Below the pieces are notes generated by a model. That model was not told the origin of the DNA. It ran no database searches and saw nothing but the letters and a program-made list of their open reading frames with translations. From an uncultured Candidatus Poseidoniales archaeon (GTDB lineage: Archaea > Thermoplasmatota > Poseidoniia > Poseidoniales > Thalassarchaeaceae): a stretch of 64,000 nucleotides of DNA. The position numbers and the translations under genes were made by a program. This document shows, piece by piece, positions 5,650-54,690 of the stretch. Each line of letters starts with the position of its first letter. Position 1 is the stretch's first letter. Location of the stretch: assembly GCA_963990035.1 (NCBI GenBank), contig CAXDMJ010000002.1:3441-67440 (forward strand), read 5' to 3'.

Positions 5650-6636
5650 TTTTCGAATTTTTGTTTTTTGAGTTATGAAACCTATCTTATTTAGTTCATA
5701 GATTAGTTCAGATAATTCAGAATATTTTTTTTCCTCTATTCTCTTAGGTACAATAACTATACTTTCTCCTAACATGCATAAAAGTGGTTTAACTTCTAAT
5801 GATAATGAATTAATGATATTTTCAGCGTCTTTAAGTAATTCGAATCTACTTGAATCTGAAAGTAAACCACTTTCTTTAGCGAAATTTTCAGTTCTTTCTA
5901 ATAATTCGAGCCAACGTCCTTTATTCCAATCATCTTTCATTAGTTCATTCATTTGTTTCATACCCGCTTTACTGATAGATTCTTTCCATAAAGGAGCATC
6001 AATATATGATGAAGTATGTTTTCCTGAATCTTTTTTCCAAGCTAAGATAACCTCTATATCTTCAAACCAACCATCTGATTTTCCAGGGCCTTTAGTTAGT
6101 AATTCACCGCTAAATGGTGAGCCAGGTGATATTCTCCTCTCAACACCACCTGCTGCTAAAGCTGTAACATCACCCAATCCTGTTGACATGCTTCTTTCAA
6201 CTCGGTGTGAAATCGCTAAAGAACGTCTCAAACTTTCTTCATGAGGCTCCCCAATCGCCCTTTGAAATGCCATAGCCGCCGAGATAGCTCCTGCTGCAGA
6301 CATTCCAAAACCTTGAGATATCGGTAATTTTAATTTTACAGCCAAATCCCAACTATAATTATTGATATCGGTTATATCTTTAGCTAATAATTTTAGAACT
6401 TTTTCATATAATTCTGAATCCCCACTTCCTTGAATAAATTCAACATTAATACCAAAACTCCCTTCAATCCCTCTTGCAATAGCCTCAACTCCATGTTCTA
6501 GACATAGTCCAACACCCAAACTTCCCTGTTGATCTAAATCTGTAGAATCATCATTAACTGTGAAAATAAGTGTGACATGCGAACCTGACTCACCACGTCC
6601 CAATAGAACGGTCATACTAATGCGTCCAATATCCAA
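5641..6636 (-). CDS. GHMP-family kinase; substrate unknown (pantoate kinase-like or shikimate kinase-like is possible)
   Basis: 331 aa with a GHMP ATP-binding loop 'PISQGFGMSAAGAISAAMAF' and an N-terminal GHMP fold signature. Confidence 0.55.
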   Translation of the reverse strand: MDIGRISMTVLLGRGESGSHVTLIFTVNDDSTDLDQQGSLGVGLCLEHGVEAIARGIEGSFGINVEFIQGSGDSELYEKVLKLLAKDITDINNYSWDLAVKLKLPISQGFGMSAAGAISAAMAFQRAIGEPHEESLRRSLAISHRVERSMSTGLGDVTALAAGGVERRISPGSPFSGELLTKGPGKSDGWFEDIEVILAWKKDSGKHTSSYIDAPLWKESISKAGMKQMNELMKDDWNKGRWLELLERTENFAKESGLLSDSSRFELLKDAENIINSLSLEVKPLLCMLGESIVIVPKRIEEKKYSELSELIYELNKIGFITQKTKIRKLF

Positions 6637-14600: not shown

Positions 14601-15349
14601 AGTGCTGCAAGGTTTCCAGATTTTCGATGTATTGCTAATCCATGAACTAAAATTGTTGCCATCAGAATCATTACAGCGATACCAATTTCACCATATCCAT
14701 AACCAGCAGCCGAACCGATTAGTAATAGAATAAGAGTTGATTGCGCTGCAATTGCATCATGTTTATGCCTATAGGAGAGGTAAACATTCAATCCAACAAG
14801 TGCTAGTAAAAGTATGCCTAGAATTTCAAAGGAAATCACTTCCCATCTTTGTAATTCTATAGCCAATCCATAAAGAATTTTCATTGAAATTATAATCCAA
14901 GTAATTCCGAGTAAATTCAAATTATTTTTAGAGACCCATAGTTCCCCTAAAGTTAATCCAAATAATGCTAAACATACTAGTAAAATAGTTGCATATAGTG
15001 GACTAAGTGCAATTCCAGATATGATGCTTATACCTGAAAATACCAGAATCATTGAAGCCATTAATATCCAATTAACTTTCTTCTCACCTTCTTTAGCAAG
15101 ATCAGTTATGATATCAATTTCTGGAGGATTACTCACTGTCCCATCTTCTTGAATAAAACCTGGTGAATTTTTATCAATTTTAGCGAATGGATCAAATATA
15201 TCTCCTAATGCTTCATCAACTTCTTTTTCCTCAAGAATAATTTTTTCTTCTACTTCATCTTGAATTAAAATATCTTCTAATTCGATAGAATCACTTATTT
15301 TAAATGCCCTTTTTCGAATGAGTTCATCATCCGAGTTGTCGGTATCCAC
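11621..15349 (-). CDS. Very large polytopic integral membrane protein of unknown function (1242 aa, >25 predicted TM helices)
   Basis: Hydrophobic segments of ~20 aa recur through the whole length. There is one charged cytoplasmic loop ('KNKRKNKRETEYTEDIEELY') and I recognise no catalytic motif. Confidence 0.7.
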   Translation of the reverse strand: MDTDNSDDELIRKRAFKISDSIELEDILIQDEVEEKIILEEKEVDEALGDIFDPFAKIDKNSPGFIQEDGTVSNPPEIDIITDLAKEGEKKVNWILMASMILVFSGISIISGIALSPLYATILLVCLALFGLTLGELWVSKNNLNLLGITWIIISMKILYGLAIELQRWEVISFEILGILLLALVGLNVYLSYRHKHDAIAAQSTLILLLIGSAAGYGYGEIGIAVMILMATILVHGLAIHRKSGNLAALGIASTNLWVGMHALTNGFSIGSLTILQLETPLLLFILIMIVTGINASMAAKFAKDENWFSKAFKILGLGEPGLWGVSISLGMIGALMAVGANRQDLGYAIGLISILASSFGGSYLVVRGVETRRVAIPLLISGVILSISLIVFESTSILPFDSYEFFATSGVLITSFVMLRDQNSVTDRVLWTGSVVILILLVIMIPADASEKIVNSGANGDGGLLLLSLLSLVHIGTAFLAVKRNSPSLAGITVILPWLWLIIEELVEETIRTLVVSNGGVDPGAIIQIEPTPLFGYLAIASLLMAIVNIKLGKNGVNLASKFLGLTEISASIRDSGALQLWSIGLWLPIITIIFMAKFGGFTALTLLGIFAIITALHLISELVRKRIGKSSIMLATLALGYTIIQWQYGLEEVLMLIYCIVAITLLLRNDGSDESMYSVGMSLMAIPMLISLVSRNPNELIDTNIIPSFGITKVSLFCTGALILVYLSKAKEMEKLLNPALASLWLLVINIALVYNKGEFYEILIAITIFAISTIWLVANGEVRREIKSIAKRNSLKELAKNQNIEDSYTSIGGVKKFNPKIVELKNKRKNKRETEYTEDIEELYLTDATHRPVIILLVLGLVIGASTIISFIFGTNHLVLLTTGIFVAILAIVARERTKGLELELPHFLGIEMPIAISISGVVLIQVSGHLAAASSNIELFDMAIMTLLVLFLCIISLMNQKNLIDRVQIAIDWFIMPIFLGRLIGTILYESLPAPFTVNPIKGDLLEWIMPWNILEVLLILLIITMAWVEMKRISTGREPTTNNSLRAWAIVFISTGPAGMLALLLVIYHTIKNQQTVEFGLLIPAVIFVIISLSNWIQQLKGTIDEITLIIGITTLLLCALTVYFKKEIWTMTLATNSHLLIYSGLLWTGVFSTIYLPIILISLSTTIWVIGILQLRRVLRIWGLFDLIIAIVASLLLLGSQILEPTILLISLIVLATELGLVAWLGLSNEDEIVKD

Positions 15350-19573: not shown

Positions 19574-22500
19574 ATGCGCTCTACATATCATAGGATATCT
19601 GGCTCGCAAAAGCAAACAGCACTTCTGCTAGTAGCATTGATGATATTGCTACCTTGGTCCGCATATTCATCTTCAGATCTGGATAATGAGGTTGATTCAA
19701 GATATGCCGTACCCGGTGCTTGGGGTGCTAGTGGAAGTAATGATACAGGTTGGATTGACTTTTCGGCAACAGGGGCAAATCCTTCGAATGGGACCTATGC
19801 TTATGGAGACTTATTCTTTGATTTCGCACCAGGTGCAGTGATTGACAATATGACTTTTGAGGTCAAGGTAAATGGTTCAATTGGAGAATGGGTTTATGAG
19901 CCCCAAATCACTTTACTAGATTCTCAAACTCCAATACTTGATTGGACTGATTTAGGAGGTTTTGGTATACAAAATTCATTTGTTGAAAATCAACCAGATG
20001 TCAATTCAGTTGGTGTACTAGATACATCGTTGCAGCCTAATTCAGTTAGTGATACTAGTTGGCAATTACCCACTGATATTTCAATAACTGATATAGTGAT
20101 GGAAGCTCTTCGACCAGCAGATCCTAAAGTTTCTTTTTCCTTATTAGATGTCGAAATATATGACAGTGCCGTCAACCCTATCGATGGAAGATTATACATT
20201 TTATTAGGCGATGACTTATTACATCTAGATGATCAAACATCTACTCGAATAATCGATGTTGAAGAAGGCATCCAAGGACGTAGTCTTGCAATAGATGAAA
20301 CGGGTAACCGATTGATGATAGGGACTTCTAATGGCACCATATTACAACGTAGCCTTTCTGATTCTTCGTCAATGGAATCTATTAATTTAGCCTTTAACGA
20401 CACAATTTCTCCAATAACTGCTGTAACAGTTGATGATTATGGGACAATTTGGGCCGTTGCTGGCTGTAATATTTTCTACACTGATGATGGTAGCTGGTCA
20501 TCTTACTATTATTGTCCGGGTGGAGCAATAAAAACCGCTACAGATGTATTAGCGTATGGAGATAATTTGTATGTATCTACGTATCAAGGATTACATTTCT
20601 TAGGCTACTCAACCTCTATGCAAGGACTAGTTTCAGTTGATAGTAATACAATTTGGAATACTGAAAATTTCCTTTCCTCAAATCAGATAAACGACCTACA
20701 AATTTTAGGAAATACTCTTTTGATAGCAACAGAAAATGGCGGTATTAATCGTCGTAATCTGGTAGCGAATTCATGGATGGCAACTTGGTCTACAAGTAAC
20801 TGGCTATCATCAAATCAAGTGGTAGGTTTAGGTGTTACAGAAGGCTGGCTATATATTTTAGCAGGAAATACTGTCCATTCTTATAATACTAATTCGTTAA
20901 TATTTAGTTCTCAAAGACAATTAAGTGTTTTTGGTCTCCAACAGAACGGTAATCAAATAATTTCCTGGCCTGACCTTGGTAAAGCTAGAAGTCCTGAATC
21001 AGGTCTAGTGCTCTTAGGAGATGGTTCAGGGGTCCTAGGGCGTTTAATTGGGGAGATAGTTGACGGTTCAGAAACATTGGTTAGTAGTCCATCTGTAACT
21101 AATATGAATCAAGTATTTTTTGTAGATGATGGAGAGTCTGGTGAAGTTTGGGTATCTGGTGGTACTGTAATAGATAGGTTTGATGAAGCGACTCAATCAT
21201 GGCTTATTCCAATAGATATTTCAGATTATGTTAGTAATCCAGTAGAAATTACTTCCTTTGTCCAAGATTCAGATGGATGGATATGGGTAGGAACTATTAA
21301 TTCTGGAATCTTAAAATTAGATAATACTGATGCTTCATACATAGGTACAGTACAAGGCCTTGCTTCTTCAGAGATTCAATCCTTAGCTCATGATCAATAT
21401 ACTGAAATTCTAGTAGTTGCCCATTATGAAGATGGCTTATCTTTCGTGAATACCTCTACTATGATATTATCTGATGTAATTACTGAACAAGATGGCTTAG
21501 ATTCTGATTTCATAAATGATGTAGTAACAAGATTTAGTATTGCTTATGTAGCCACACCAGATAACGGAGTAATGAGAATTGATTTGCAAGAATTATCCAT
21601 TTTATCCTCTTGGAAATCTCTTGGTGCGGATAATTTAGAGGCTGCCCCAATAGCAGTTGATGGAGATATAATCTACTTTGGTCTGACCGGATTTGGAATT
21701 TTATTAATTGATAGATACTCTGGTGATATAATAGATATATGGGATGCAGAGGGAAATAGTGGTTTACCGGATAATGATGTACTCGCACTTCATCTAGACT
21801 ACTTTGGCGGCCTAATAGTCGGTATGGAAGTTCCTAATTCAGGAGGTACTTCAAATCAAGCAATGGCTAGATGGGATGGTTCCAGTTGGGAATATTTTGA
21901 AACTGATGTCCCTGGTGGCAATAATGATCCGTTCAAAATTAATGATATCAAGAGCGATAATTCTGGAGTAGTTGCGGCTACCAATCGTGGAGTTTGTACT
22001 TGGACTGGTTGGACATTAATTCAAGGAAATATTTACGAGTGGGATGAATGTATTTCTCCAATGAATAACTCAGCACGATTCAGCGAGACTTTTGCTGTAG
22101 AACTAGTGTCAGGAAGTAGCCCTCTTGCTAGCGGTTCTTCTACGACAAAGATTCTGGCAGGTCATGATGATGGAGCATCGTTGATAGAGCGAGGTCAGGG
22201 AATGAATGTAATTCAAAGATGGACTGCAGGAGATGATACACAAAGAGCCAGAATAGTCAAAGTTCAGGATATATTGTATATTGGTTTTGAGAATACAGGT
22301 ATAGGAAGATACAATCTTACTAGTCAACAGTGGCTTCAAACATGGGATGGAGATCAAGGATTTATTGATGATGATGATGTAACTGTTCTTATTCCTGGTC
22401 ACATTGAAGGTACAATTTGGGCAGGTGGTGACTTTGGATTAACGCTTATTGATGTAGTTAATAATACTGTGTTAATCGATTGGAATCGAGGTTCTAATTC

Positions 22501-25500
22501 AGGAGGCCCAACCCTATCAAATTCAGCTCCAGCGGATGTTGTTATTATTGGTGATATACTGCATTATTCTACTCAAAGATCAAATTCTTGGTTCCAATCT
22601 AATGATCAAATTTATAGGATAAATTTATCCTCTAATTCTAGCGAATCTACAATTGATGCAGGCCAAGAATTAGGTTGGAATGGTAAAATACATAGCATTG
22701 GGCAAGTCTCTGAAGAGCTTTGGGTAGGAATAAGGCCTGGTCAATATTGGAATGATGGCGATGGTACAATTGCTCGTTGGAATACGACTAATGAAACATG
22801 GGAAGATCCCCTAACTACACTCGGCAGTGTCGAGAGAGTAAATGCTCAGTACCTAGGAGATTGTTTTCCAATAAATGTCTCATCTTGTGAGTTATGGGTT
22901 GCATATGGCGACAATGTAATGCGACGTTTTTCTGCACAAACAATGACTTTACTTGATGAATGGACAGATATTGGTGGGCCAATTAGAGGTATGGTCGAAT
23001 ATCAAGGAGAATATCTCTTTGCAAGTATGGAGGGGATTCTTCGATGGAATCCTAATAATGAGACATGGCTTGATTCATGGGTTGTTAATGACGGACTTCC
23101 TTCCGATGCAAATGATGAATTATACACAATGACTACTGTTGGTGATGATCTTTGGGCAGGAAGTTACAGCGGTGGAGGCGGATTTAATACAAATTCAGAA
23201 ATTATACGTAAAAATGGTACATCTGGTAATTGGACCACTTGGGAATCTGGAAGTGCCGGTATCCCTGATGGCTATATTGCAGACATTGAGGTTTGTGATG
23301 ACATAGTACACATAGCCGTTGGTGCAGTTAATTTTTGGGGGAATCAAGGTGGCATAGCTCGCTATGACTTAGCAGATCATGATTCAGATGGAACAACTGA
23401 CGAATGGATAACTTCTGTATTAACTTCTAATGGCTTAGCAGATAATGATGTTAGAGCTCTAGCTTGTGATGATGCGAATCGAATAATATATGCAGGATTC
23501 GATGAAGAAGGAGTAGGTATTGCTAGATATGACTACAACGCAGGTCTATTCTTAGACACACTTACGAATGCTGCTGATGGTATTTCTGAGGATCGAATAT
23601 TCCCTGGAGGTATGTTGCATGATGGTGACGTACTTCTTACTGCTCATCAATATGATAATGATGGTGGAATTTCTCGGATAGTAACTTCCGGAACTTCTAC
23701 TATTAATGGCCAAATTTTAAGTCCAGGGATGGATGCATGTTCGATTGTTCGAGCTCCTTCAAGTACTAGTCCAGTATATGCAATAGGTCGTTCTGGACAA
23801 ACATCTGGAGTAAATAGAGTAGATAGATTAGACTCTACTGGATTAATCGAGAGTGGATATGACGAATTAGTAGGAATTACTAGTGGGCAAATTCAAAATA
23901 TTATTTCTAATGAAACTAATGTTTGGGTGACTTCTAGTCAAAATCGCAACTCATATTATGCATCTTCTGTTCTACAAGGAGAACTAACTAACGGAACTGT
24001 TAGATGGGAATTTGGATATGATTTTGCAGGTGATATAATTAATGATATTTCTCTTGACGGAGATAAGTTATGGGTAACTACAGCAGGAAGCGGACTTTGG
24101 AAGATTGATACTATACAGCGTACAAAATCTCCAATGTCATCCGCTCTTCATTCACAAATGGATGGGATGTATTTTGATGATGACGGCACAATGTATGTTG
24201 GATTAATGGGGGAGTCAGGAACTGCTGCAGGGTACCAATCCTTTGATACTAATACCGAGAATTGGGGACCAGGCAGTTTGATAGCGGGATTACCAAATAA
24301 TATTGTAAGAGATTTCTTAGAACTTGATTCTCATCTTTTAATTGCTACTCATGGTGGAATTGGATCGTATAATCTTTCAACTTTGAGTTTCGATAACCCA
24401 ATAACATCTTACAATGGACTTCCATCTCCAATCATTGACCACTTAATGATTCTAGATAACCCTATACAAGGTAATGGCACTATATTAGCAGGTGGTTTGG
24501 CAGGATTAACAATTCTTGAAGATGAAACTTTCACAGTGCTGAATACATTAGATTTTTCTGATGGTTTGATTGGCGATAGAGTTTCAGGACTTTTCTTCGC
24601 TGATTCAGTAACTAGGCAGGTACTAGTCGGTAACTCTACAATAGTTCAATATCATAATGCCTCAGTATTCATTTCTCATAATGGTCAAGGTGTAACACGT
24701 CCAGGAGTTGCAGCATGGGATATTGATTCTGATATGCAGAATGGAACTTACTTTATCGATTCGATTCCAAGTAATAATGTTCTGGCTATAGCTGCTGATA
24801 GTTGGGGTGTCCATATTGCCACTGATATTTCGCCACTTGTCCACTGGAATGGTACTATGATGCAGATGGAAACGGGGACAAGTCCCTTCAACCTGTTGTC
24901 ATGGCCACCATCTCAAATGGTTTCAGATGGTAATTATTTGGCTCTAATTAGTCCAGCGGGTATAGATTTACTAGAAGCTTCTAAAACTCATTCAGTCGTT
25001 AAATCCGAAATAATATCCGGATCTTCTAATGCATTTATTGATTCTAATTCTCTATATGTTGTGGGTAACGATGGTTTACACCATTACAGTCCGATCGTAA
25101 GTTTGAATGAGCAACCTCGTGAATATCAGAGGCGAGCCGAGCCTTTGTTTGCTATATTTGGAGGGGAGCAGTGGGATTTAACCGAAACAACTCATCCGGG
25201 GATGTCATCAATATTGATAGACTCTACTGATCCATTATTAATTCCTAATAGTCCATTGTCTTTACCTGGAGTTTTACCCATGTATAATGGAGCCATGACA
25301 ATTTCTAGTCCAGTTAATGGCGCATCAGTATGGGCTCAGTCTGTTTCATTAAATTATACTGGTTCATGGGATTTAGCAGGGCGAAACCCTGCGATTGAAG
25401 CAGGATTCCAAACAGCAATTTCTAATGTCGGACCAGGTTCTAATTCAGTTGTATTGAATGTTCAAATGCAGTCACCTCAGAATGGTACGATTAGTGTAAG

Positions 25501-28165
25501 AATGACTTATGATTGGGAGAGAATAGAAGTTCCAACAATATTGCAGTCTCTCTCAAATAGAGATAATGATGGCGGAGGTGTTCTTGAATCATCTTGGTTA
25601 CCTTCTGAAGATGCTGCATGGTATGCTTACAGACTATATGTCTGGGATTCAACAAATATGCTAGATTGGGAACCCAGTGAAAATGATTTAGATAATTTCG
25701 CAGGTTACATAAATGTTCCATTCTGGTCGCAGACAAGTGCTACAATCACCGAAGCCGATCATGATGGTACGATGTCCTCATTAATTGATGGGAATCAATA
25801 TCGAGCAGCAATAGTCACAGAATATCCCGATGGGTCCCTTGGTCAACCTATGACTTGGCCATTTAACGTAACGCCTATTGATGAAGTCCCATCTTCTCCA
25901 GATTGGTTACTTGCTAACCCTATTTCAGGCGGAACTGCAGGGACAATTTATGCTGAATGGTCTGCTTGCACTGAAATGGATGCTGATAAAACTAGAATTT
26001 GGGCAGTAGAACAAGAAATTACAAATACTCTTGCATTAACAGATCATTTTGATATTTCTTCAATATCAGGCAACAATACAGTCCTCCAATTAAGTCCTGG
26101 TGGTACTTATTGGTTTGCAGCAGTTTGTGTTGACGAAGGCGGACAATTCGATCCAATGAATGCAACAATAATCGGTCCTATCGTTGCTGCTGGAGGGCTT
26201 GATGATGGCATCCCTCCTACTAAGATAGAAGGTACTACTGCAACTGATGTTTTAGGTGATGATGGTAGTCAAATACAAGTGAATTGGATTCCTAATTCAG
26301 AAACAGATTGTGCATACTATACCATTTATGCATTACCTGCTACTAGCTGGCAACCTCCAAACAATGTTGATGGTTGGCCTGTTGCCTCTTATGTTTCAGA
26401 TTGTGATACAAATTCAACAATTATCTCTTCAATAGGGGAGTCGTTATTCATTGATGATACTGCTTATTGGGTTGGTGTAGTGGCTGTGGATGATTGGGGC
26501 AATCATAATTTGAATGACGTATTAGTCGTTGAAGTCACACCTCAATCAAATAATGGTGGCGTAGGAATACCTCCTGCCAGAGTATCCGGCTTGAATGCAT
26601 TTGACCATCCCGATGATGATGGCACTGCTATTGACGTTTCATGGAACCGTTCTTTAGTCAATGATTTCTCATTCTATACGATATGGGTTTCTGACTTTTA
26701 TCAAGACAATCTAACAGAATCTTGGTTAAATTGTTCTGAATCTCCAGAGTCTTGTGGTCTTATCATAATAGATCAGCAACAAATTGGAGGTGTCTTCGAG
26801 TTACAAGTTACTGTTGATAAAGCCCATTATGGCAACTCTATTTCTCAATTATCCTCCTCCTCAATAATTCCAGAAATCCCATTATATGTTACTATTACAA
26901 CTCATGATATTCGGGGCAATGTCTTCCTTACAGAGATGCAAAATCAAATGGTTTTAGTTATTCCTTCTGATAATAATGGTGATATATTCCCTCCTGTAAG
27001 GCTTGAACCACCTCAACTTACCGACCGCCTCTCTGATGATGGTGATGGTGTATTTGTTAATTTCCAAGAAAGTGAGGAGTCAGATATCTCAGAGTATTGG
27101 ATTTATGCTGATACCGTGCCATTTAGTTCTCTAGAAGGTCGTGAACCGGCGATTATAGTTAGTCGTGATTTAGAGATGCCATTATTGCTTGAAACATTTT
27201 CAGACGGAAGTCCATTGGCCCCTAATATCATGTTCTGGGTAAGTGTAATTCCAGTTGATTCTTCAGGTAACTATTGGGATCAAGGTGTAAAAACATCATC
27301 TATTGCTTTGATTAATGAAAATATTCTCGACCCTGGTCTCCATATTCCAGAAATTAGTGGAATAATTGCTTATTGGGATAGTTCTGGTTCGAGAATCCAA
27401 ATAGAATGGGATGATAGGAAAGATAGTCCAATTATTGAATCATATTACATATTTTTGTCATCCACTCCATTTGAAGATACTAGAGATGCCGATGCTTCAC
27501 AATTGATCCAAATTGATTATTCTAGTTATTCTTGGAGGGCAGATATTTCAGATAATCTTGATGGCAATTCATATGCTCTAAATAATGAAAACACATATTG
27601 GGTTGTAATTGTAGGATTTGATGGTTCTGTCCATCGTTTAGCGGTAAATCCACTCGAAATTCAACCTTGGTCCGAATCAGCATTTGGTAGAGATAATACT
27701 GGTGCAGATTCAGGAGTATCTTGGATTAATCAATTACTTGAAGGCGATATGAATATGATGATTGCTATTCTATCTGCTATAATGATTCTACTTGGTGGCG
27801 CCTTAGTACTGAAACCTAAGCAACGATCTGTACCTCAACCATGGGAAATGGGTGCACTAGAAGTTGAACTTGAAGAAGAAATGTTCAATCGAGATTTAGA
27901 TTTGGAAGATGAAGATTATACTATTGAAAATGAAAGCGACTCACAAATAGATAATTTTGATCCCGTAGATTATGATGAGATTCAACAAATATCTCCATCA
28001 AATGAAATAGTTGATGAATTATTAGGGGTGGAAGAAGAAGTAGATTTAGATGATCTGAATGACTTAGCAGATGATTTTGATTTAGATGATTTAGATGATC
28101 TAGCCGGCGAATTAACTCAAGATGCTGATGACATTGATACTTCATTTATTGATGATATTCTCTGA
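19574..28165 (+). CDS. Giant surface protein (2863 aa): signal peptide, multiple Reg_prop-type beta-propeller repeats, FN3/Ig-like domains, C-terminal TM anchor and acidic cytoplasmic tail
   Basis: Signal peptide 'TALLLVALMILLPWSAYSSS'. Repeated propeller motifs ('SGLPDNDVLALHLDYFGGLIVG', 'NDGLPSDANDELYTMTTVGDDLWAGS', 'SNGLADNDVRALACDDANRIIYAGF'). FN3-like 'YYTIYAL'/'FYTIWVS' blocks, a TM helix 'MMIAILSAIMILLGGALVL', then a ~110-aa D/E/L-rich tail. Confidence 0.85.
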   Translation: MRSTYHRISGSQKQTALLLVALMILLPWSAYSSSDLDNEVDSRYAVPGAWGASGSNDTGWIDFSATGANPSNGTYAYGDLFFDFAPGAVIDNMTFEVKVNGSIGEWVYEPQITLLDSQTPILDWTDLGGFGIQNSFVENQPDVNSVGVLDTSLQPNSVSDTSWQLPTDISITDIVMEALRPADPKVSFSLLDVEIYDSAVNPIDGRLYILLGDDLLHLDDQTSTRIIDVEEGIQGRSLAIDETGNRLMIGTSNGTILQRSLSDSSSMESINLAFNDTISPITAVTVDDYGTIWAVAGCNIFYTDDGSWSSYYYCPGGAIKTATDVLAYGDNLYVSTYQGLHFLGYSTSMQGLVSVDSNTIWNTENFLSSNQINDLQILGNTLLIATENGGINRRNLVANSWMATWSTSNWLSSNQVVGLGVTEGWLYILAGNTVHSYNTNSLIFSSQRQLSVFGLQQNGNQIISWPDLGKARSPESGLVLLGDGSGVLGRLIGEIVDGSETLVSSPSVTNMNQVFFVDDGESGEVWVSGGTVIDRFDEATQSWLIPIDISDYVSNPVEITSFVQDSDGWIWVGTINSGILKLDNTDASYIGTVQGLASSEIQSLAHDQYTEILVVAHYEDGLSFVNTSTMILSDVITEQDGLDSDFINDVVTRFSIAYVATPDNGVMRIDLQELSILSSWKSLGADNLEAAPIAVDGDIIYFGLTGFGILLIDRYSGDIIDIWDAEGNSGLPDNDVLALHLDYFGGLIVGMEVPNSGGTSNQAMARWDGSSWEYFETDVPGGNNDPFKINDIKSDNSGVVAATNRGVCTWTGWTLIQGNIYEWDECISPMNNSARFSETFAVELVSGSSPLASGSSTTKILAGHDDGASLIERGQGMNVIQRWTAGDDTQRARIVKVQDILYIGFENTGIGRYNLTSQQWLQTWDGDQGFIDDDDVTVLIPGHIEGTIWAGGDFGLTLIDVVNNTVLIDWNRGSNSGGPTLSNSAPADVVIIGDILHYSTQRSNSWFQSNDQIYRINLSSNSSESTIDAGQELGWNGKIHSIGQVSEELWVGIRPGQYWNDGDGTIARWNTTNETWEDPLTTLGSVERVNAQYLGDCFPINVSSCELWVAYGDNVMRRFSAQTMTLLDEWTDIGGPIRGMVEYQGEYLFASMEGILRWNPNNETWLDSWVVNDGLPSDANDELYTMTTVGDDLWAGSYSGGGGFNTNSEIIRKNGTSGNWTTWESGSAGIPDGYIADIEVCDDIVHIAVGAVNFWGNQGGIARYDLADHDSDGTTDEWITSVLTSNGLADNDVRALACDDANRIIYAGFDEEGVGIARYDYNAGLFLDTLTNAADGISEDRIFPGGMLHDGDVLLTAHQYDNDGGISRIVTSGTSTINGQILSPGMDACSIVRAPSSTSPVYAIGRSGQTSGVNRVDRLDSTGLIESGYDELVGITSGQIQNIISNETNVWVTSSQNRNSYYASSVLQGELTNGTVRWEFGYDFAGDIINDISLDGDKLWVTTAGSGLWKIDTIQRTKSPMSSALHSQMDGMYFDDDGTMYVGLMGESGTAAGYQSFDTNTENWGPGSLIAGLPNNIVRDFLELDSHLLIATHGGIGSYNLSTLSFDNPITSYNGLPSPIIDHLMILDNPIQGNGTILAGGLAGLTILEDETFTVLNTLDFSDGLIGDRVSGLFFADSVTRQVLVGNSTIVQYHNASVFISHNGQGVTRPGVAAWDIDSDMQNGTYFIDSIPSNNVLAIAADSWGVHIATDISPLVHWNGTMMQMETGTSPFNLLSWPPSQMVSDGNYLALISPAGIDLLEASKTHSVVKSEIISGSSNAFIDSNSLYVVGNDGLHHYSPIVSLNEQPREYQRRAEPLFAIFGGEQWDLTETTHPGMSSILIDSTDPLLIPNSPLSLPGVLPMYNGAMTISSPVNGASVWAQSVSLNYTGSWDLAGRNPAIEAGFQTAISNVGPGSNSVVLNVQMQSPQNGTISVRMTYDWERIEVPTILQSLSNRDNDGGGVLESSWLPSEDAAWYAYRLYVWDSTNMLDWEPSENDLDNFAGYINVPFWSQTSATITEADHDGTMSSLIDGNQYRAAIVTEYPDGSLGQPMTWPFNVTPIDEVPSSPDWLLANPISGGTAGTIYAEWSACTEMDADKTRIWAVEQEITNTLALTDHFDISSISGNNTVLQLSPGGTYWFAAVCVDEGGQFDPMNATIIGPIVAAGGLDDGIPPTKIEGTTATDVLGDDGSQIQVNWIPNSETDCAYYTIYALPATSWQPPNNVDGWPVASYVSDCDTNSTIISSIGESLFIDDTAYWVGVVAVDDWGNHNLNDVLVVEVTPQSNNGGVGIPPARVSGLNAFDHPDDDGTAIDVSWNRSLVNDFSFYTIWVSDFYQDNLTESWLNCSESPESCGLIIIDQQQIGGVFELQVTVDKAHYGNSISQLSSSSIIPEIPLYVTITTHDIRGNVFLTEMQNQMVLVIPSDNNGDIFPPVRLEPPQLTDRLSDDGDGVFVNFQESEESDISEYWIYADTVPFSSLEGREPAIIVSRDLEMPLLLETFSDGSPLAPNIMFWVSVIPVDSSGNYWDQGVKTSSIALINENILDPGLHIPEISGIIAYWDSSGSRIQIEWDDRKDSPIIESYYIFLSSTPFEDTRDADASQLIQIDYSSYSWRADISDNLDGNSYALNNENTYWVVIVGFDGSVHRLAVNPLEIQPWSESAFGRDNTGADSGVSWINQLLEGDMNMMIAILSAIMILLGGALVLKPKQRSVPQPWEMGALEVELEEEMFNRDLDLEDEDYTIENESDSQIDNFDPVDYDEIQQISPSNEIVDELLGVEEEVDLDDLNDLADDFDLDDLDDLAGELTQDADDIDTSFIDDIL

Positions 28166-32023: not shown

Positions 32024-33556
<1,533 letters not shown>

Positions 33557-48087: not shown

Positions 48088-49212
48088 TCAGTCTACTATC
48101 TGTAGATTTTCTTGAATATCTTTAGGTGAAGAATCTTCGTCAGATTCTAGTTCAGATATACTTGGAGAAGATTGTGCTCGATGATATATTTCTCTCAGAG
48201 TTTGGTCACCAATCTCTAAATATACTCTCGTAGTTGAGATATTAGCATGACCTAAAAGTCTCTGTATTGTCACTAAATCTGCCCCTCTTTCTAGTAATCC
48301 TGTAGCAAAAGAATGTCTTAGTACATGGGGGCTAAGTCTTGTTCTAGGAATATCAGAGGCATCAGCAATACGATCTAGTAGTTTCTGAACTGAGCGAGGA
48401 TTCAATCTTCTACTCCTACTTGAAAAGAATAAAGATCTTTCATCTTCTTTTCTAACGCAAGATTTTAGTCTTGCATTTCTTATTGGTCTCCAAGCATCGA
48501 GTGCGTTTAATGTGGCATTGGTGAAAAGAACCGTGCGATCTTTTTCTCCTTTCCCACCTATCACTAGTGCAGATAAATCATCCAAATCGACGTCATCTAG
48601 ATCTAAATTACAGATTTCTGAGCACCTTAATCCAGTATCTAACATCATTGTAATTATTGGAAATGCTATTGGGTCTTCTGATCGAGTAGCAGCGAGTCTT
48701 ACTTTTTTCAAATCACTCTTACCTAAAGTTCGAGGAAGAGATCTTGATCTAGCAGGTCTTTGAATCCATTCAGGTATCGAGTATCCTAACCATTTGAGTA
48801 GATGTGTTACTGCTGCGATTCTTGCATTAATAGTTGCTGGACGTAAATTTCCAATAGTGTTTAACCAAGAATCAATTCTCCCATTATTGGGATTAATTCT
48901 TGTAAATAATTCTGAAACTCGAAATTCTTTTACTACATCCCATAATTCATTTTCTTCATCCGGTAGTGATGTAATTGTATATGTTTTAGCTGCCACAACA
49001 TATGCTCTAATTGTATGTTCACTTTTCTTTTCAGTTCTTAATTGTTGGAGCCAACAATCAAACCAAGGTAATAGTGCCAATCTCTGAAGACGTTGAGGGA
49101 GATGTTTTGTATGAATTAATAATTCAGTACTATTCAAATATGGTTCTTCAGTAAGGCTTTTTAGCGCCTGAGAATTCTCCATTCTTTCATTCTGTTTAGT
49201 CAATTCCCTCAC
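48088..49212 (-). CDS. xerA: Tyrosine recombinase, XerA/XerC-D-like
   Basis: C-terminal catalytic 'HVLRHSFATGLLERGADLVTIQRLLGHANISTTRVYLEI' (R..H..R..Y). Confidence 0.85.
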   Translation of the reverse strand: MRELTKQNERMENSQALKSLTEEPYLNSTELLIHTKHLPQRLQRLALLPWFDCWLQQLRTEKKSEHTIRAYVVAAKTYTITSLPDEENELWDVVKEFRVSELFTRINPNNGRIDSWLNTIGNLRPATINARIAAVTHLLKWLGYSIPEWIQRPARSRSLPRTLGKSDLKKVRLAATRSEDPIAFPIITMMLDTGLRCSEICNLDLDDVDLDDLSALVIGGKGEKDRTVLFTNATLNALDAWRPIRNARLKSCVRKEDERSLFFSSRSRRLNPRSVQKLLDRIADASDIPRTRLSPHVLRHSFATGLLERGADLVTIQRLLGHANISTTRVYLEIGDQTLREIYHRAQSSPSISELESDEDSSPKDIQENLQIVD

Positions 49213-49349: not shown

Positions 49350-50306
49350 TCATGATTCTGATAAACCAGTGGTCTTGTCAAAGTTGAGCCCTTGTTCTTT
49401 GATAGAAGAATCAATATTTTCTTGTTTTAATTCTTTTAGTAAGTAATCCATTCTTTCTGTTACTGCACCTGCAACATTTATTCCTGATGCTTTCTCAATA
49501 CCTTCTAAACCAGGACTTGAATTAACTTCCAATACAAGCGGCCCTCTTTTTGATTCTAGCATGTCTACTCCTGCGACTTCAAGCCCCAAAATTTTTGCTG
49601 CTTTGATAGCGATTTTCTCAAATTCATCACTAATTTCTATTTTTTCTACGCTTCCACCTAAGTGGAAATTTGAACGAAACTCATTTCCATGAGCTTTTCT
49701 TCTCATACAGGCTACTACTTTTCCACCCACTACCAATGCTCGAATATCTTTCCCATGAGATTCCTCAATATATTCTTGAACTAAAGGCCCCATATCTCTT
49801 TCTAACATCTGATATACTAGTTGTTTTGCATGTTGTTCAGTTTGTGCTAGGAAAACACCTGCTCCATGTGTTCCTTCAGTTGCTTTTACTACACAAGGAG
49901 TCCCTCCTACTCTAGTAATTGCTCTGTTTGTATCTTCCCATGAATTTACTTGAACAGTTATAGGTACAGGGATGTTTCCAGACGACATCATTTGACATGC
50001 AATTAATTTATCTCTACTGCTTCTAATCCCCTCACTAGAATTCATCACAATGATACCGATTTTTTCAAATTCTAAAACTTTGTCACAGCCTTTATTTGTA
50101 ATTGAATAACCTATCCTTGGAATTACTGCATCGCACTCAAGTGGCCACGACCTATACAAAAGTCCCTCTTCTGACGAACCTGCACCTGAGATACGTAACG
50201 GATCTACGACTTTCACCACCCAACCCAACTTCTCAGCCTCTTCTACAAGACGTTTCGTGGAGTATAATTGTGGGCCGCGAGATAGAATCACTACAACAGG
50301 GTCCAT
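49350..50306 (-). CDS. RimK-family ATP-grasp ligase (alpha-L-glutamate ligase-like)
   Basis: 318 aa with the RimK/LysX-type N-terminal region and an ATP-grasp core ('GKVVACMRRKA...FRSNFHLGG...VAGVDMLE'). Confidence 0.75.
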   Translation of the reverse strand: MDPVVVILSRGPQLYSTKRLVEEAEKLGWVVKVVDPLRISGAGSSEEGLLYRSWPLECDAVIPRIGYSITNKGCDKVLEFEKIGIIVMNSSEGIRSSRDKLIACQMMSSGNIPVPITVQVNSWEDTNRAITRVGGTPCVVKATEGTHGAGVFLAQTEQHAKQLVYQMLERDMGPLVQEYIEESHGKDIRALVVGGKVVACMRRKAHGNEFRSNFHLGGSVEKIEISDEFEKIAIKAAKILGLEVAGVDMLESKRGPLVLEVNSSPGLEGIEKASGINVAGAVTERMDYLLKELKQENIDSSIKEQGLNFDKTTGLSES

Positions 50307-50404
50307 AATTTGCCGCGGTGACCAATACTTCTTGAGTTCTTTGGCTCCGTAAATGGTATTTTACTCCAGTACTAGCGGTTCTGCAACACAGAAGAAGGAA
50401 GGTA

Positions 50405-52714
50405 TTGAAAGACTCGCCTATTGGACTAGGCCTGTTAACTATGGTAGACGGCGAGTCTTTTAGCTTCGACTCACTATCGAAAATGAAGGTTTCTGAGTTA
50501 AGAGAGATATGTAAAAAAGGGCAATTATTAATATCTGGTAACAAGGCAGAGTTAATATTTAGAATTCTTGAAAATACTTCTTCTCCACAGGACAATGAAG
50601 AACTATTTCTTGATGAAGAAAATATTGTGTTGGAAAGTCCCCAAACTACGATTCCTGAAATTAAAGATACAGCGCGTTCTTCTAGAGAAATTGATGATGC
50701 AATAGATCGTCTAATCTCACGTGTTGATGATAAAGAAAGTCTAATCATAGATGAAAATCCCGAAAATTCTATTTTGAATGATGAAATTATGGATGCAGAG
50801 ATATTTGATGCAGAAATTATTGAAGAAGTAGGGAATGAATTAGATGAAAATCCCGAACCATCTTTAATTCTTGAAGAAAAAGATCCTTGGTCTAGTAATA
50901 TGGTAGAAGAAAAGAAAGTAGAGTTAGAAAATTTAAGCGTGGATATAGAGGAACCATCATTTACTATTACAATTCCATCATTAGATATTTTCAAGAAGTA
51001 TTGGCAGCAAATATCTTCTATATTCGTAGTTATTTTATTAATTGGTGCTGGTGTAGTTTATCTTCTCTCAGCCGATTCGTCATTTCAAGCTCGACCAGTA
51101 AATTATGGTGATTCGATGACATTCACTTTGAGTGATGGAGAAATAATCTTAGATGGTGATGAAATGGTTTCTTTACTAAGAGATAATTTGCCAGATACTG
51201 CAATTCAGGATGCATGTAATCGATTAACTGTGGATATTGTAGGTACAGGCTCTATTACAATTATAGAAGGGGATGACTCTCAAATAACCCATCCTTTAGA
51301 TAAACAATCTTCTAATCCCGATTATTCTGGTACTATTGATGCTAAAGATGCCTATGGACGTTCTCACCTCACAGTTCAACAACAAATTACACATGATCTT
51401 GATATTGATCTAGAGGGTAAAACTTGGAAAGATACTAATGTTTGCGGAAATATAGGATGGTCATTACCTGGTAATGAGCTTTTAATGACTACAAATCTCT
51501 ATGATGAGTTAGCGGAAAGTAGCCTTCTAAGATCTGAATCTATAATTTCTTTTACTGATTCTGATGGAGATACAACAAATGCAAATATTGTAACTTTTGG
51601 TGCTGATGGTTTTGGTAATCTAGATGGCATAGCCCCGATATTGACATTCCCCCTATCTCCTATTGAATTATATGATTTCTTTGGAAGTATTAAGTTACAA
51701 TCCGGAATGACTTCGGAGTCAATATCTGATTGGAATAATGATTGGCAATGGACAGTTGGTTCTGAGCAGAATAATGCTGAGCACGGTCTTGTGTATCCAG
51801 TAAAAATTATTCATGAAGAGATTGAAAGATGCCTTGGTAGAATACATATAGATATTTTAGTTAAAAATGGGATTCCTTGGGCTGTTGAACAAGAGGTAGA
51901 TATTTTGATTGATAAAGATGAGAGTACATCTGATTGTAGTTTCATTGAAAGTACTGCGACAGATGCAGCACTTCCAGAAGGATCTCTGACAATTAAAATG
52001 AAAATGAGTGAAATATCATCAGATTCAGGTTCTAAGTCAATACCTTGGGGTTCAGTCTATGCTGGTCGACCAGGTATTGGTGAAGATAAACTAAGTCCGA
52101 CTGCAAAGAAAGATTGGTCAACTGCTATATGGGATGAATCAGAAATTAGATTATTCAGTATAGAAGATGCATTAAACTGTCTACGTACGAATTATTCCAG
52201 TCGAGATATTTCTGTTGCAATTGATAGTGATGGATATATCTGGCAGGGAACATATGGCGTGACTGATTTTGAAGAATGGAATTTATCTTGGGTCCGCTCT
52301 GATGAAACTTCAGGTTGGGCAATAGTTAGTTTATCTAATAATGAATGCTCTTTTGATGATGAAGGACGCAATGATGGTGAGATTACTTGGAATCAAGATG
52401 CTATACCCTCTACTCACACCTTAAATAAATTAGAAAATAGAATTCTTAATACTAATCGTTATCAAGATTTAGCCAGTTCTCTAGGCTCATCCTCATCGTG
52501 GTTTGAAGATACTAATTACGGTTACAGAGTTTCCGTTTCAGAAGATAATGATCTCTTCTCATTCCTTCCAGGAGATTTAACTGAAGGACAAGTTACAATT
52601 ATTGGAAGTAGAGAGTGGACTGAATCTAATCGAGAACATAATATAAACTTCGCAATGGATGCTCAAACAGGTCGGATGCTTGCTTGGGCAGAAATCATTG
52701 GCTCATCTCAGTAA
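50405..52714 (+). CDS. Membrane protein with N-terminal cytoplasmic SAP/HeH DNA-binding motif, acidic linker, one TM helix and a ~550-aa extracellular domain
   Basis: 'LSKMKVSELREICKKGQLLISGNKAELIFRIL' fits the SAP consensus L..L.V.ELR.....RGL...G.K..LI.RL. TM helix 'ISSIFVVILLIGAGVVYLLSA'. Its 3' end overlaps the parA ORF. Confidence 0.7.
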   Translation: MKDSPIGLGLLTMVDGESFSFDSLSKMKVSELREICKKGQLLISGNKAELIFRILENTSSPQDNEELFLDEENIVLESPQTTIPEIKDTARSSREIDDAIDRLISRVDDKESLIIDENPENSILNDEIMDAEIFDAEIIEEVGNELDENPEPSLILEEKDPWSSNMVEEKKVELENLSVDIEEPSFTITIPSLDIFKKYWQQISSIFVVILLIGAGVVYLLSADSSFQARPVNYGDSMTFTLSDGEIILDGDEMVSLLRDNLPDTAIQDACNRLTVDIVGTGSITIIEGDDSQITHPLDKQSSNPDYSGTIDAKDAYGRSHLTVQQQITHDLDIDLEGKTWKDTNVCGNIGWSLPGNELLMTTNLYDELAESSLLRSESIISFTDSDGDTTNANIVTFGADGFGNLDGIAPILTFPLSPIELYDFFGSIKLQSGMTSESISDWNNDWQWTVGSEQNNAEHGLVYPVKIIHEEIERCLGRIHIDILVKNGIPWAVEQEVDILIDKDESTSDCSFIESTATDAALPEGSLTIKMKMSEISSDSGSKSIPWGSVYAGRPGIGEDKLSPTAKKDWSTAIWDESEIRLFSIEDALNCLRTNYSSRDISVAIDSDGYIWQGTYGVTDFEEWNLSWVRSDETSGWAIVSLSNNECSFDDEGRNDGEITWNQDAIPSTHTLNKLENRILNTNRYQDLASSLGSSSSWFEDTNYGYRVSVSEDNDLFSFLPGDLTEGQVTIIGSREWTESNREHNINFAMDAQTGRMLAWAEIIGSSQ

Positions 52715-53736
52715 CTATAGAATTCACTATGTTGATTGTCTGTGATAGCGGCACATTCAATTTCCTTCTAAGCGCCCAAGGCGCTTGTATGTCCATTAAT
52801 GATGATGATGTTCGGCTACCAAAAGTCGAAAAAGTTCCATTAATAATTGATGTAGAATTTATAGAAGATGAAGTAGTCAATTCCTCCTCTGACAATGTCA
52901 ATCCAGTTAATACTCAGAAAACAAGTCGCCCATTAGATTTACCATTCCCGATTCCTACTCCTGAAGGTAGAGCTAGAATCGTCACTGTCATTAATCAGAA
53001 GGGAGGTGTTGGAAAAACAACGACAGTCATTAATATTGGATCTCAACTTGCTTTAAGTGGACATAGAGTATTGGTAGTAGATGCAGATTCTCAGGGTAAT
53101 TGTGCTACTGGATTAGGGGTAGATAAAAGTAAGGTTAAACATACAACTAGAGACCTAATATTGTCTCCTGAAACTGCAGTTACAGCTCGCCATGCGACAG
53201 CAGTTGATGGATTGCATATGATTGTTGGAGATCGCAGTTTAGTTGGTTTAGAGCAAGAAATGTTGCGACAGTTAGGCAGAGAAAGGAGATTAGCTGAGGC
53301 TTTAGAGCCATTATTACCACATTATGATATTGTGATAATAGATACTCCTCCATCATTAGGTTTAGTGACAATCAATGCTTTAGTTGCCAGCGATGGTGTC
53401 CTAATACCAGTTCAAACTGAATACTTTGCTTTGGAAGGATTGGCAATGTTAGCAGGAACAATTAGAGAGGTTAGAAATCTACTCAACCCGCGATTAGGTG
53501 TTGATGGTGTTTTGCTAACTATGCATGCGAGTACTCTTCTAAATCAACAGGTAGCTTCAGAAATTCTAGAACATTTACCTGAGTTTGTAATACAACCAGC
53601 AATCCGTCGAAATATCAAATTGGCTGAAGCACCCAGTCACGGAGTCCCAATCCATCTACACGATCCGAATAGTAATGGTGGCCAAGATTATCAAGGAGTT
53701 TCTCATTCCTTGGAAAAAAGATGGGGACTTATTTAG
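52684..53736 (+). CDS. parA: ParA/Soj-type partition ATPase (start may be Met at 52789)
   Basis: Deviant Walker A 'NQKGGVGKTTTVINIG', 'VVDADSQGN' and 'IIDTPPSLG'. Confidence 0.9.
   Translation: MGRNHWLISVTIEFTMLIVCDSGTFNFLLSAQGACMSINDDDVRLPKVEKVPLIIDVEFIEDEVVNSSSDNVNPVNTQKTSRPLDLPFPIPTPEGRARIVTVINQKGGVGKTTTVINIGSQLALSGHRVLVVDADSQGNCATGLGVDKSKVKHTTRDLILSPETAVTARHATAVDGLHMIVGDRSLVGLEQEMLRQLGRERRLAEALEPLLPHYDIVIIDTPPSLGLVTINALVASDGVLIPVQTEYFALEGLAMLAGTIREVRNLLNPRLGVDGVLLTMHASTLLNQQVASEILEHLPEFVIQPAIRRNIKLAEAPSHGVPIHLHDPNSNGGQDYQGVSHSLEKRWGLI
52771..52785 (+). promoter_or_regulatory. Perfect GC-rich palindrome AGCGCC-CAA-GGCGCT immediately 5' of the probable parA start
   Basis: The 6-bp arms are perfect and the sequence is unique in the window. 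It is a candidate operator. Confidence 0.25.
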
Positions 53737-54690
53737 ATGGTATCTAAAGGTCTAGGCCGAGGACTTGAATCTGTAGCGGAGTTAGCTAAGGATGGTCCTG
53801 ATCTTTCATCTTACGTTTCCTCAGACTCTATGCAGCCCGTTGACTCTCCCAGAACCGCAGTTCTTTGGATGATATTTGGAAGTGTTTGTTTTGGAACTAT
53901 GAATGCACTTGTCAAATGGACTTCACTAAATGCAGACGTTTGGATGATTATTTTTATCCGTTCATTAGTAATTGCCGTGGCCGTTGCAATATTCGCAAGA
54001 TATCATAACACTAGCCTTCGGATGAATGACCCTAAAAAGATGTTTTTACGCTGTTTAGTAGGATTAATTGCAATGATACTTTATTTTTCTGCCCTATCTT
54101 TAATTCCTATTGGTCAAGCAGTAACATTACAATATACTGCTCCCTTATTTGTCGCACTCTTATCTGGTAGTTTAATTCGTGAAAAAGTTTCTTCTTCTGT
54201 AATAATTCTGCTAATAACTGCATTTTTTGGAATTATATTAATTGTTTCTCCAGACTTAGATAGTATAGATCCGAATGCTTTGTTAGCTCTAGGATCAGGA
54301 TTCTTTGCAGGTTTAGCTTATATTTTTGTCCGGGACTTGAGGAAGACAGATTCCCCCTCTACAGTTGTTTTTTGGTTTGCGGCTTTTTCCGTATTGGGTT
54401 CAGTAATTCAAGCAGCACCTGCTTTGTCTAGTCTTACTTGGGAAATGATTGCTGCATTAGTAGGGATTGGCGTAGGTGCAGGTGGAGGCCAAGTAGGAAT
54501 CACAATGGCTTATCACAAAGCAAATGCTGCTTGGGTCAGCGCATTCTCTTATCTTACAGTAATAATTGCAACAATATATGGTATTATTCTATTTGATGAA
54601 ATATTAACAGCAAAAATACTAATTGGAGGATTATTGATAGTCGGTTCTGGTGTTGCATTAATTTTCTTCACACCACCAACTAATAAATAG
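53737..54690 (+). CDS. EamA/DMT-family 10-TM permease with an N-terminal ParB-like ParA-interaction peptide
   Basis: N-terminal 'MVSKGLGRGLESVAELAKDG' matches the bacterial ParB/Spo0J N-terminus (compare 'GLGRGLEALL'). The rest has typical EamA repeats. The ATG directly follows the parA stop codon. Confidence 0.8.
   Translation: MVSKGLGRGLESVAELAKDGPDLSSYVSSDSMQPVDSPRTAVLWMIFGSVCFGTMNALVKWTSLNADVWMIIFIRSLVIAVAVAIFARYHNTSLRMNDPKKMFLRCLVGLIAMILYFSALSLIPIGQAVTLQYTAPLFVALLSGSLIREKVSSSVIILLITAFFGIILIVSPDLDSIDPNALLALGSGFFAGLAYIFVRDLRKTDSPSTVVFWFAAFSVLGSVIQAAPALSSLTWEMIAALVGIGVGAGGGQVGITMAYHKANAAWVSAFSYLTVIIATIYGIILFDEILTAKILIGGLLIVGSGVALIFFTPPTNK

Follow-up and report, generated by a model that had tools for sequence, protein, structure and literature searches.

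Partner proteins that act on a ParA-type ATPase through an N-terminal activating peptide are known in principle, the examples being ParB, ParG, MinE, McdB, TlpT, PomX/Y, SegB and HpaB. The motif relevant here is that of Myxococcus xanthus ParB, where the ParA-binding segment was mapped to residues 11-19 (LGRGLxxLI), with L11, L15, L18 and I19 each needed for ParA binding, a weakened binding when serine was placed at I19, and R13 as the central basic residue; a 20-residue ParB peptide suffices for the stimulation of ParA when DNA is present (PMC12462528). The present work deals with a 64,000-nucleotide stretch of DNA from an uncultured Candidatus Poseidoniales archaeon (GenBank assembly GCA_963990035.1, contig CAXDMJ010000002.1, positions 3,441 to 67,440 of the forward strand), called below the window and numbered from its first letter, in which a gene at 53737..54690 (+), adjoining parA, encodes a membrane permease of the drug/metabolite transporter (DMT) superfamily with a ParB-type motif in its cytoplasmic N-terminal tail.

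Among the bacterial systems with non-ParB partners, PpfA-TlpT distributes chemoreceptor clusters and McdAB distributes carboxysomes (PMC11407121). In PpfA-TlpT / ParC-ParP and McdA-McdB, the N-terminal region of the partner contacts or activates a nucleoid-bound ParA-like ATPase (PMC11407121), as is predicted for the permease; their partners, however, are either soluble or components of large assemblies, with peptides devoid of the ParB LGRGL, whereas in the window the near-canonical ParB motif is carried by an integral membrane transporter as the putative partner. In archaea, the SegAB, HpaAB and AspA-ParB-ParA systems likewise combine ParA homologues with lineage-specific partners contacting ParA by an N-terminal segment; such a contact of a non-ParB partner was reported for SegB and HpaB, and HpaA was described as horizontally acquired from bacteria (PMC12139799; bioRxiv 10.1101/2025.11.19.689047). 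SegB and HpaB are small soluble site-specific DNA-binding proteins of ribbon-helix-helix or helix-turn-helix (HTH) type, without sequence similarity to ParB, while the permease is a membrane protein that has no DNA-binding module and carries ParB's own motif. Bacterial membrane or polar ParA anchors, such as TipN, PopZ, HubP and DivIVA, capture ParA or ParB at the envelope and organise the chromosome, using other interfaces and acting alongside ParB; to our knowledge, none of them is a transporter with a ParB activation peptide.

With bacterial chromosomal ParABS the locus shares the ParA subtype (by the best structural matches given below), the sequence [KR]GLG[RK]GL[ED] in the initial ~15 residues of the protein encoded just after parA, and a tight gene junction. 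It differs in its archaeal host, in the carrier, which is a DMT permease with ten transmembrane (TM) helices and without the ParB/Srx CTPase, HTH and dimerisation domains, in the lack of parS, and in the last hydrophobic residue of the peptide, which is not conserved. Unusual, therefore, is the presence of ParB's own motif, not of an analogue, on an integral membrane transporter devoid of a DNA-binding or CTPase module, in an arrangement that goes back to the ancestor of an uncultured, worldwide abundant order of archaea and includes a SAP-domain membrane protein. No description of a ParB-motif transporter next to parA was found in the searchable literature, including that on partitioning in Poseidoniales or marine group II (MGII) archaea. 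The Poseidoniales belong to the most abundant archaea of the surface ocean and are uncultured, and we know of nothing described on the organisation and segregation of their DNA.

The permease and its ParB-type motif

The product of 53737..54690 (+), 317 amino acids (aa) long, contains two EamA (PF00892) repeats, found in Pfam with an E-value of 5.5e-25 above the gathering score, and its matches in NCBIfam are weak and sub-threshold (2A78, 41.5 bits against a cutoff of 230; YddG, 27 against 300). By hydropathy and the positive-inside rule it has 10 TM helices with the N- and C-termini inside, the loops 87-106, 148-151 and 199-208 rich in K/R being placed inside and the acidic loop 171-179 outside. 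The AlphaFold2 (AF2) model built from 19 orthologues (mean predicted local distance difference test, pLDDT, 76.6) has ten TM helices as well, and the comparison with the PDB by Foldseek returned DMT folds: SLC35B1 (TM-score 0.73), YddG 5i20, TPT and LicB. The TM or transporter core is very strongly conserved across the orthologues. The original prediction, which had placed a ParB-like peptide on the cytoplasmic N-terminus of a 10-TM DMT-fold protein, is borne out in this respect.

The ParB/Srx CTPase domain (PF02195) was sought in the permease and is absent, EamA being its sole Pfam match and no NCBIfam model scoring above its cutoff; neither a parS-binding HTH nor a C-terminal dimerisation domain was found there, the remainder of the protein being made up of TM helices. 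The permease belongs to the DMT superfamily; it is no ParB, since all three domains were looked for and are absent.

The N-terminus, given as MVSKGLGRGLESV, MVSKGLGRGLESVAELAKDGPDLSSYV and MVSKGLGRGLESVAELAKDGPDLSSYVSSDSMQPVDSPRT, precedes the hydrophobic helices as a cytoplasmic tail of residues 1-40 (53737..53856, +), which is predicted to be disordered and is missing from DMT relatives unlinked to parA. Residues 1-35 have a pLDDT below 50 in the AF2 model, and the sole ordered part is a short helix at 10-19. The ParB-type ParA-interaction motif KGLGRGLESV occupies residues 4-13 (53746..53775, +) and was matched both to M. xanthus ParB 11-19 and to real ParB N-termini. Aligned with the latter, the permease sequence S-K-G-L-G-R-G-L-E-S-V-A is identical across [KR]GLGRGL[ED], and the residues of M. 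xanthus ParB correspond to those of the permease as L11 to L6, R13 to R8, L15 to L10, L18 to V13 and I19 to A14. L6, G7, R8 and L10 are invariant in the permease alignment (A1), and the position equivalent to L18 is hydrophobic (V/I/M/L) in the permease tails.

The ParB comparison set consisted of 120 proteins, all with Pfam ParB-family domains, mostly PF02195, and was retrieved with a Thermus thermophilus Spo0J query that is 99% identical to a database protein. In 111 of these 120 ParBs the N-terminus carries [KR]xSGLG[RK]GL[ED]AL[LI]P, as is typical for the Deinococcota ParB N-termini collected. The 15-mer profile made from them was run against 3,211 open reading frames (ORFs) of at least 60 aa from the window and 86 loci, and the top 43 places were all taken by permeases, at 9-12.6 bits, the best non-permease ORF reaching 6.2 bits. 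The ORFs of the window and related loci, 504,232 aa in total, contain GLG[RK]GL 50 times, in each case in a permease N-terminus; by chance, 3.7e-7 occurrences would be expected per position, or 5.6e-6 in any single protein if its first 15 residues are considered. A chance origin of the motif is, by these figures, very unlikely.

Thus, the resemblance to ParB that had been claimed for the first 20 residues stands for the motif itself, supported by the match in the ParB N-termini and by the profile ranking, with an extent of about 9-10 residues (K4-V13) instead of 20. The accompanying idea of action through a conserved arginine is outdated, given that the central R/K was argued not to be an arginine finger and that Lys occupies its place in ~50% of ParBs (PMC12462528).

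A second conserved motif of the tail, GPDLSSY (G-P-[DN]-L-[ST]-S-[FY]; 53794..53814, +), was recognised in the alignment and the N-termini, with P21 invariant and G20, L23 and S25 conserved at 90% or more. It has no ParB counterpart, and it is lost along with LGRGL in the clades without the motif.

The upstream Soj-type ParA

The gene at 52789..53736 (+), for which ATG 52789 is the most plausible start, encodes a ParA ATPase of 315 aa with a ~60-aa lineage-specific N-terminal extension; its TAG stop codon (53734-53736) abuts the ATG of the permease in a 0-bp junction, in agreement with the earlier claim that the permease lies directly downstream of parA. The protein matches AAA_31 (3e-53, Pfam), and its best solved relatives are M. 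xanthus ParA 8RAY (3.5e-58), T. thermophilus Soj (1.2e-51) and Helicobacter pylori Soj (3.3e-43), 8RAY being the M. xanthus structure of PMC12462528. The deviant Walker A motif reads NQKGGVGKTT; the catalytic residues K71, K76, D98, D100 and N104 are invariant in 75 orthologues, in which the DNA-binding R274 and K/R277, corresponding to M. xanthus R235 and R238, are invariant or conservatively R/K. In terms of sequence, the upstream ParA is a genuine Soj, i.e., of the bacterial chromosomal type. Wherever the contig reaches, parA was found immediately 5' of the permease gene (80 genome loci, plus the loci L081 and L085). An apparent fusion of ParA and permease at the locus L071 was ruled out by a stop codon between the two genes.

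The dimer-interface pocket for the ParB peptide was mapped with the ungapped 8RAY alignment, the M. xanthus number being the chain position plus 19 and that of the window ParA the M. xanthus number plus 40. The M. xanthus residues V116, L150, L152, L155, L187 and L192 become Q156, L190, L192, I195, E227 and L232, so that four of the six (L190, L192, I195, L232) are kept hydrophobic. Residues 190-195 (LGLVTI; 53356..53373, +), equivalent to the pocket residues L150/L152/L155 of M. xanthus in the 8RAY alignment, do not vary among the 51 motif-bearing loci, and the changes L192I and I195V are confined to the motif-less clades. Overall, 148 ParA positions are invariant in these 51 loci, and 11 of the 148 are altered in the motif-less ones, among them L192I (two clades), I195V, and L231F/I adjoining L232. 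Such changes form a trend consistent with relaxed constraint on the pocket.

Two added, lineage-specific and conserved ParA motifs were recorded as well: LPxVxxAPLI[IV]D[VA]EFxE at residues 10-26, in the N-terminal extension (52816..52866), and a C-terminal tail [KRH]RW[GS]L (53719..53733); neither is present in the aligned bacterial ParA structures.

Conservation, gain and loss of the tail

For the permease 950 homologues were obtained, and all those with source names are from Poseidoniales, the named ones being Candidatus Poseidoniales / Thalassarchaeaceae of the MGII archaea. Nearly all of the 120 closest protein clusters (68-92% identity) start with x[KR]GLGRGL. The scan with one genome per species gave 129 loci, 80 of which were kept; these are Poseidoniales metagenome-assembled genomes (MAGs) or single-amplified genomes, with the exception of one record deposited as Acidiferrobacter sp.

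Together with the window, 57 of the 81 sequences bear the motif. Within these 57, both flanking leucines of L-G-R-G-L (L1 and L5) are present in 57 and the arginine in 56, and the codons used comprise all six for Leu, all four for Gly and five for Arg; the linker next to the motif varies freely. Because the codons vary synonymously while the residues are fixed, the tail is translated and kept by purifying selection on the peptide and not on the DNA, the synonymous sites being saturated. For the true start codon to lie downstream of the motif, a segment under obvious selection would have to be thrown away; an upstream start is impossible in many loci since the parA stop sits just before the start codon, and the frame opens in many of them at the start codon only. 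The possibility raised earlier of a start beyond the motif is thereby answered. At one locus (L054, ~6001..6030) the motif reads GLGMGL, with Arg replaced by Met at the central basic position and the other motif residues kept.

Outside the family, the nearest DMT relatives (44% identity or less), as found among 1.84 billion representative proteins, begin a few residues before TM1 and have no tail, one of them, P0125, lacking a parA neighbour. Such homologues without the peptide had been proposed as a check, and their start right at TM1 justifies the term "grafted" used for the tail. The deepest parA-linked lineage, P0123 (52% identity), has MVKKGLGRGLNSL and the gene order RimK-SAP-ParA-DMT. 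Since P0123 carries the motif and the unlinked DMT relatives do not, the motif is ancestral to the parA-linked clade, and on an outgroup-rooted neighbour-joining tree of the permease TM core the tail was gained at the same node as the linkage to parA.

Conservation in orthologues, on which the original prediction had been made to depend, is accordingly a mixed result: the motif occurs in 57 of 81 sequences and in the 52%-identical deep lineage, and it was lost in several lineages that keep parA. The losses concern the P0124 lineage and the clades with the N-termini MGELASRG.., MSEPVDTP.., MSDLGERG.. and MQEQLDAPDSPR, with MGELASRGTGHVAPNDSPR as an example of a motif-less tail. An intact parA lies directly upstream of the permease in all the motif-less lineages, and no LG[RK]GL relocated elsewhere was detected in these loci within flanks of up to 6 kb on each side. 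The motif-less lineages offer built-in evolutionary controls, and the GLGMGL of L054 is a natural variant for the role of the basic residue.

Search for ParB and parS

With the full ParB hidden Markov model, no ORF with a ParB domain was found in the 64-kb window, nor in any of the related loci up to 6 kb from the permease gene. No parS was detected in the window, with up to 3 mismatches allowed. The published annotations, which list parA/soj for ~95% of MGII genomes and contain no parB entry, give an indirect hint only in the same direction.

Proposed function and alternatives

The tail is best understood as a functional ParA-interaction peptide of ParB origin, which at the membrane engages ParA bound to DNA; we assign this reading a probability of about 0.6, and Poseidoniales would in this way probably couple ParA to the membrane without ParB. 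From the sequences we infer ParA binding, ATPase stimulation, a cellular role and an origin by fusion in the following form. ParA-ATP dimers would sit on the nucleoid via the conserved R274 and K/R277, and the peptide, held at the membrane by ~25 flexible linker residues, could dock in the hydrophobic cleft of the ParA dimer interface (L190, L192, I195, L232), folding on contact into a short helix and behaving like ParB1-20. Docking may lead, as in ParABS, to a transient tether, faster ATP hydrolysis and the release of ParA, the outcome being a coupling of nucleoid-bound ParA to the membrane for which ParB would not be required. The co-encoded SAP membrane protein, presumably able to bind DNA directly, probably acts jointly with the permease. 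As to the origin, a bacterial parAB operon was likely acquired by the Poseidoniales ancestor, and the 5' end of parB alone may have survived, fused to a resident DMT gene.

Several observations weigh against this interpretation. The position equivalent to I19/L19 of ParB is A/S/Y/T in the permeases, so that the ParB-type motif, in its general form LG[RK]GLxx[LIV][LIF], lacks conservation at the last hydrophobic residue. Two positions of the ParA pocket (Q156, E227) are polar, but Glu is likewise found at the L187 position in T. thermophilus Soj. The co-variation between pocket and peptide, tested for the six pocket residues chosen a priori, is weak, with few independent events (Fisher p = 0.064). 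A phmmer search of the 40-aa tail against the PDB sequences returned designed repeat proteins and an antibody and no ParB, the query being very short, and tblastn of the 30-aa tail against the PLSDB plasmids gave no match; with such short queries this is to be expected, but neither search supplied an independent database hit. In one MGIIb-O1 MAG with the SAP-parA-EamA order, the annotation also lists, unlinked to these genes, a "ParB-like nuclease domain" protein of 133 aa, which is too short for a canonical ParB. Finally, on the outgroup-rooted tree the motif was lost at least 5 times while parA stayed intact, and the peptide is, therefore, dispensable in some lineages. Since at least five lineages lost the peptide yet keep parA, there must be a ParA function or activator that does not depend on it.

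The losses without loss of parA and the unconserved final position are also what would be expected if the tail were a relic of the parB 5' end, or a motif for another job (membrane insertion, regulation of transport, another partner), with no functional engagement of ParA, and the second motif GPDLSSF, which has no ParB counterpart, may be the real functional element in that case. A neutral relic, however, would not hold L-G-R-G-L in 57 species-level lineages amid saturated synonymous sites and a variable linker; the residues kept are exactly those that M. xanthus needs for ParA binding, and the gain of the tail coincides with the linkage to parA. Such an explanation appears unlikely in comparison with a tail that engages ParA.

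SAP protein and neighbouring genes

The conserved three-gene module, which was missed by the original prediction, begins with a SAP-domain membrane protein of 757 aa (50441..52714, +; Pfam SAP, 3.8e-8), found in Poseidoniales only. It is laid out as an N-terminal SAP domain and an acidic linker on the cytoplasmic side, one TM helix (51011..51067) and ~550 aa outside; its AF2 model has a pLDDT of 29. The cytoplasmic linker contains a conserved short helix, DDAIDRLISRV (50693..50725, +; family form DDAIDRL[IL][SA]R), in which D85, D86, A87, I88, R90 and L91 are invariant amid a variable acidic surrounding, and which is kept in both the motif-bearing and the motif-less lineages. This helix could be a second motif for contact with ParA or the permease, and in the motif-less lineages it is a candidate for the alternative ParA input.

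In this connection, the peptide may instead serve as a membrane sink or negative regulator and not as the main partner of ParA. It would then compete with another, true activator, for which the SAP protein's DDAIDRL helix and the unlinked ParB-like protein come into consideration, and would titrate ParA or clear it from the nucleoid periphery. The retention of ParA, the SAP protein and the linker helix in the motif-less lineages would agree with it, as would the small ParB-like domain protein annotated in one MGIIb MAG; however, nothing points to a contact of either the SAP helix or that protein with ParA, the latter being too short, at 133 aa, for a canonical ParB, and a sink of this kind refines the activating-peptide model more than it opposes it. 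As a separate explanation it is quite improbable.

About 30 nt 5' of the SAP ATG lies the non-coding element GAAGGTATTGAAAG (50398..50411, +; context 50391..50416), with the family consensus CGAAGGnGTTGAAAGcC, which is retained in Poseidoniales loci even where the SAP proteins share only ~36% identity. The exact match of GAAGGTATTGAAAG is unique in the window and no Rfam family matches it; its candidate roles are those of an operator, a centromere-like site or a specialised promoter. Around the same place, a perfect 11-nt inverted repeat at 50408..50418 / 50450..50460 (AAAGACTCGCC / GGCGAGTCTTT, 31 nt apart) brackets the SAP start codon, and just an 8-nt version of it occurs, in the closest relatives only (L002, L003). 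In the O1-type clades another hairpin, GCGTTCCGC-3-GCGGAACGC, sits 5' of the conserved element.

Two conserved neighbours, encoded further upstream and on the opposite strand, are a Xer-type tyrosine recombinase (48088..49212, -; Pfam Phage_integrase, with NCBIfam XerA_Arch at 2.4e-52, below cutoff) and a RimK ATP-grasp ligase (49350..50306, -). Both precede the module in this orientation in 69 of the 69 loci whose upstream flank is long enough, as they do in the deep lineage L081. The order SAP protein, ParA, permease holds in every locus with enough flank, with opposite-strand genes on either side; the permease is the last gene of the block Xer, RimK, SAP protein, ParA, permease.

For an activating peptide at the membrane, the cellular outcome could be the tethering of the nucleoid to the membrane, or segregation, in concert with the SAP protein; an even partition of the permease as cargo; or the clearing of ParA from the nucleoid periphery. 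A chromosome-related role is the more likely one because of the SAP protein in the module and the invariably adjacent Xer. The peptide may also bind ParA in a setting without any role for DNA, the permease, or a complex containing it, being the cargo that nucleoid ParA gradients spread evenly to both daughters, after the manner of PpfA-TlpT and McdAB. It is known that ParA/MinD ATPases position many protein cargos via N-terminal peptides of their partners (PMC11407121), and the strongly conserved transporter core suggests a working transporter and not a mere anchor. One small permease would, however, be an unusual cargo, no sign was seen of its forming a low-copy cluster in need of partition, and the DNA-binding-type SAP membrane protein and the Xer in 69/69 loci point to chromosome biology, which makes the spreading of the permease for its own sake an unlikely purpose of its tail.

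If ParA is engaged at the membrane, as favoured here, the whole block could be a ParB-less tethering or segregation machine anchored in the membrane, with the two tasks of ParB divided between two membrane proteins of a single operon, where the SAP protein binds DNA (possibly with the CGAAGGnGTTGAAAG element as centromere or operator), the permease gives the peptide, ParA bridges the nucleoid and the membrane, and Xer relates to chromosome resolution; in this full form the scheme is tentative and, on balance, doubtful. The importance of the arrangement is conditional on biochemical confirmation. If true, a transporter bearing the canonical ParB activation peptide would show, by a natural example, that this short linear motif is a portable module, by which a Soj-type ParA could be directed to another partner, and a membrane-anchored solution would join the growing list of non-ParB archaeal ParA partners (SegB, HpaB, AspA).

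Elsewhere in the window, a very large ORF of 2,863 aa (19574..28165, +), a 1,242-aa ORF without a Pfam match (11621..15349, -) and a 510-aa protein with bacterial TSP3 repeats (32024..33556, +) were recorded, which are probably surface proteins unrelated to the permease finding.

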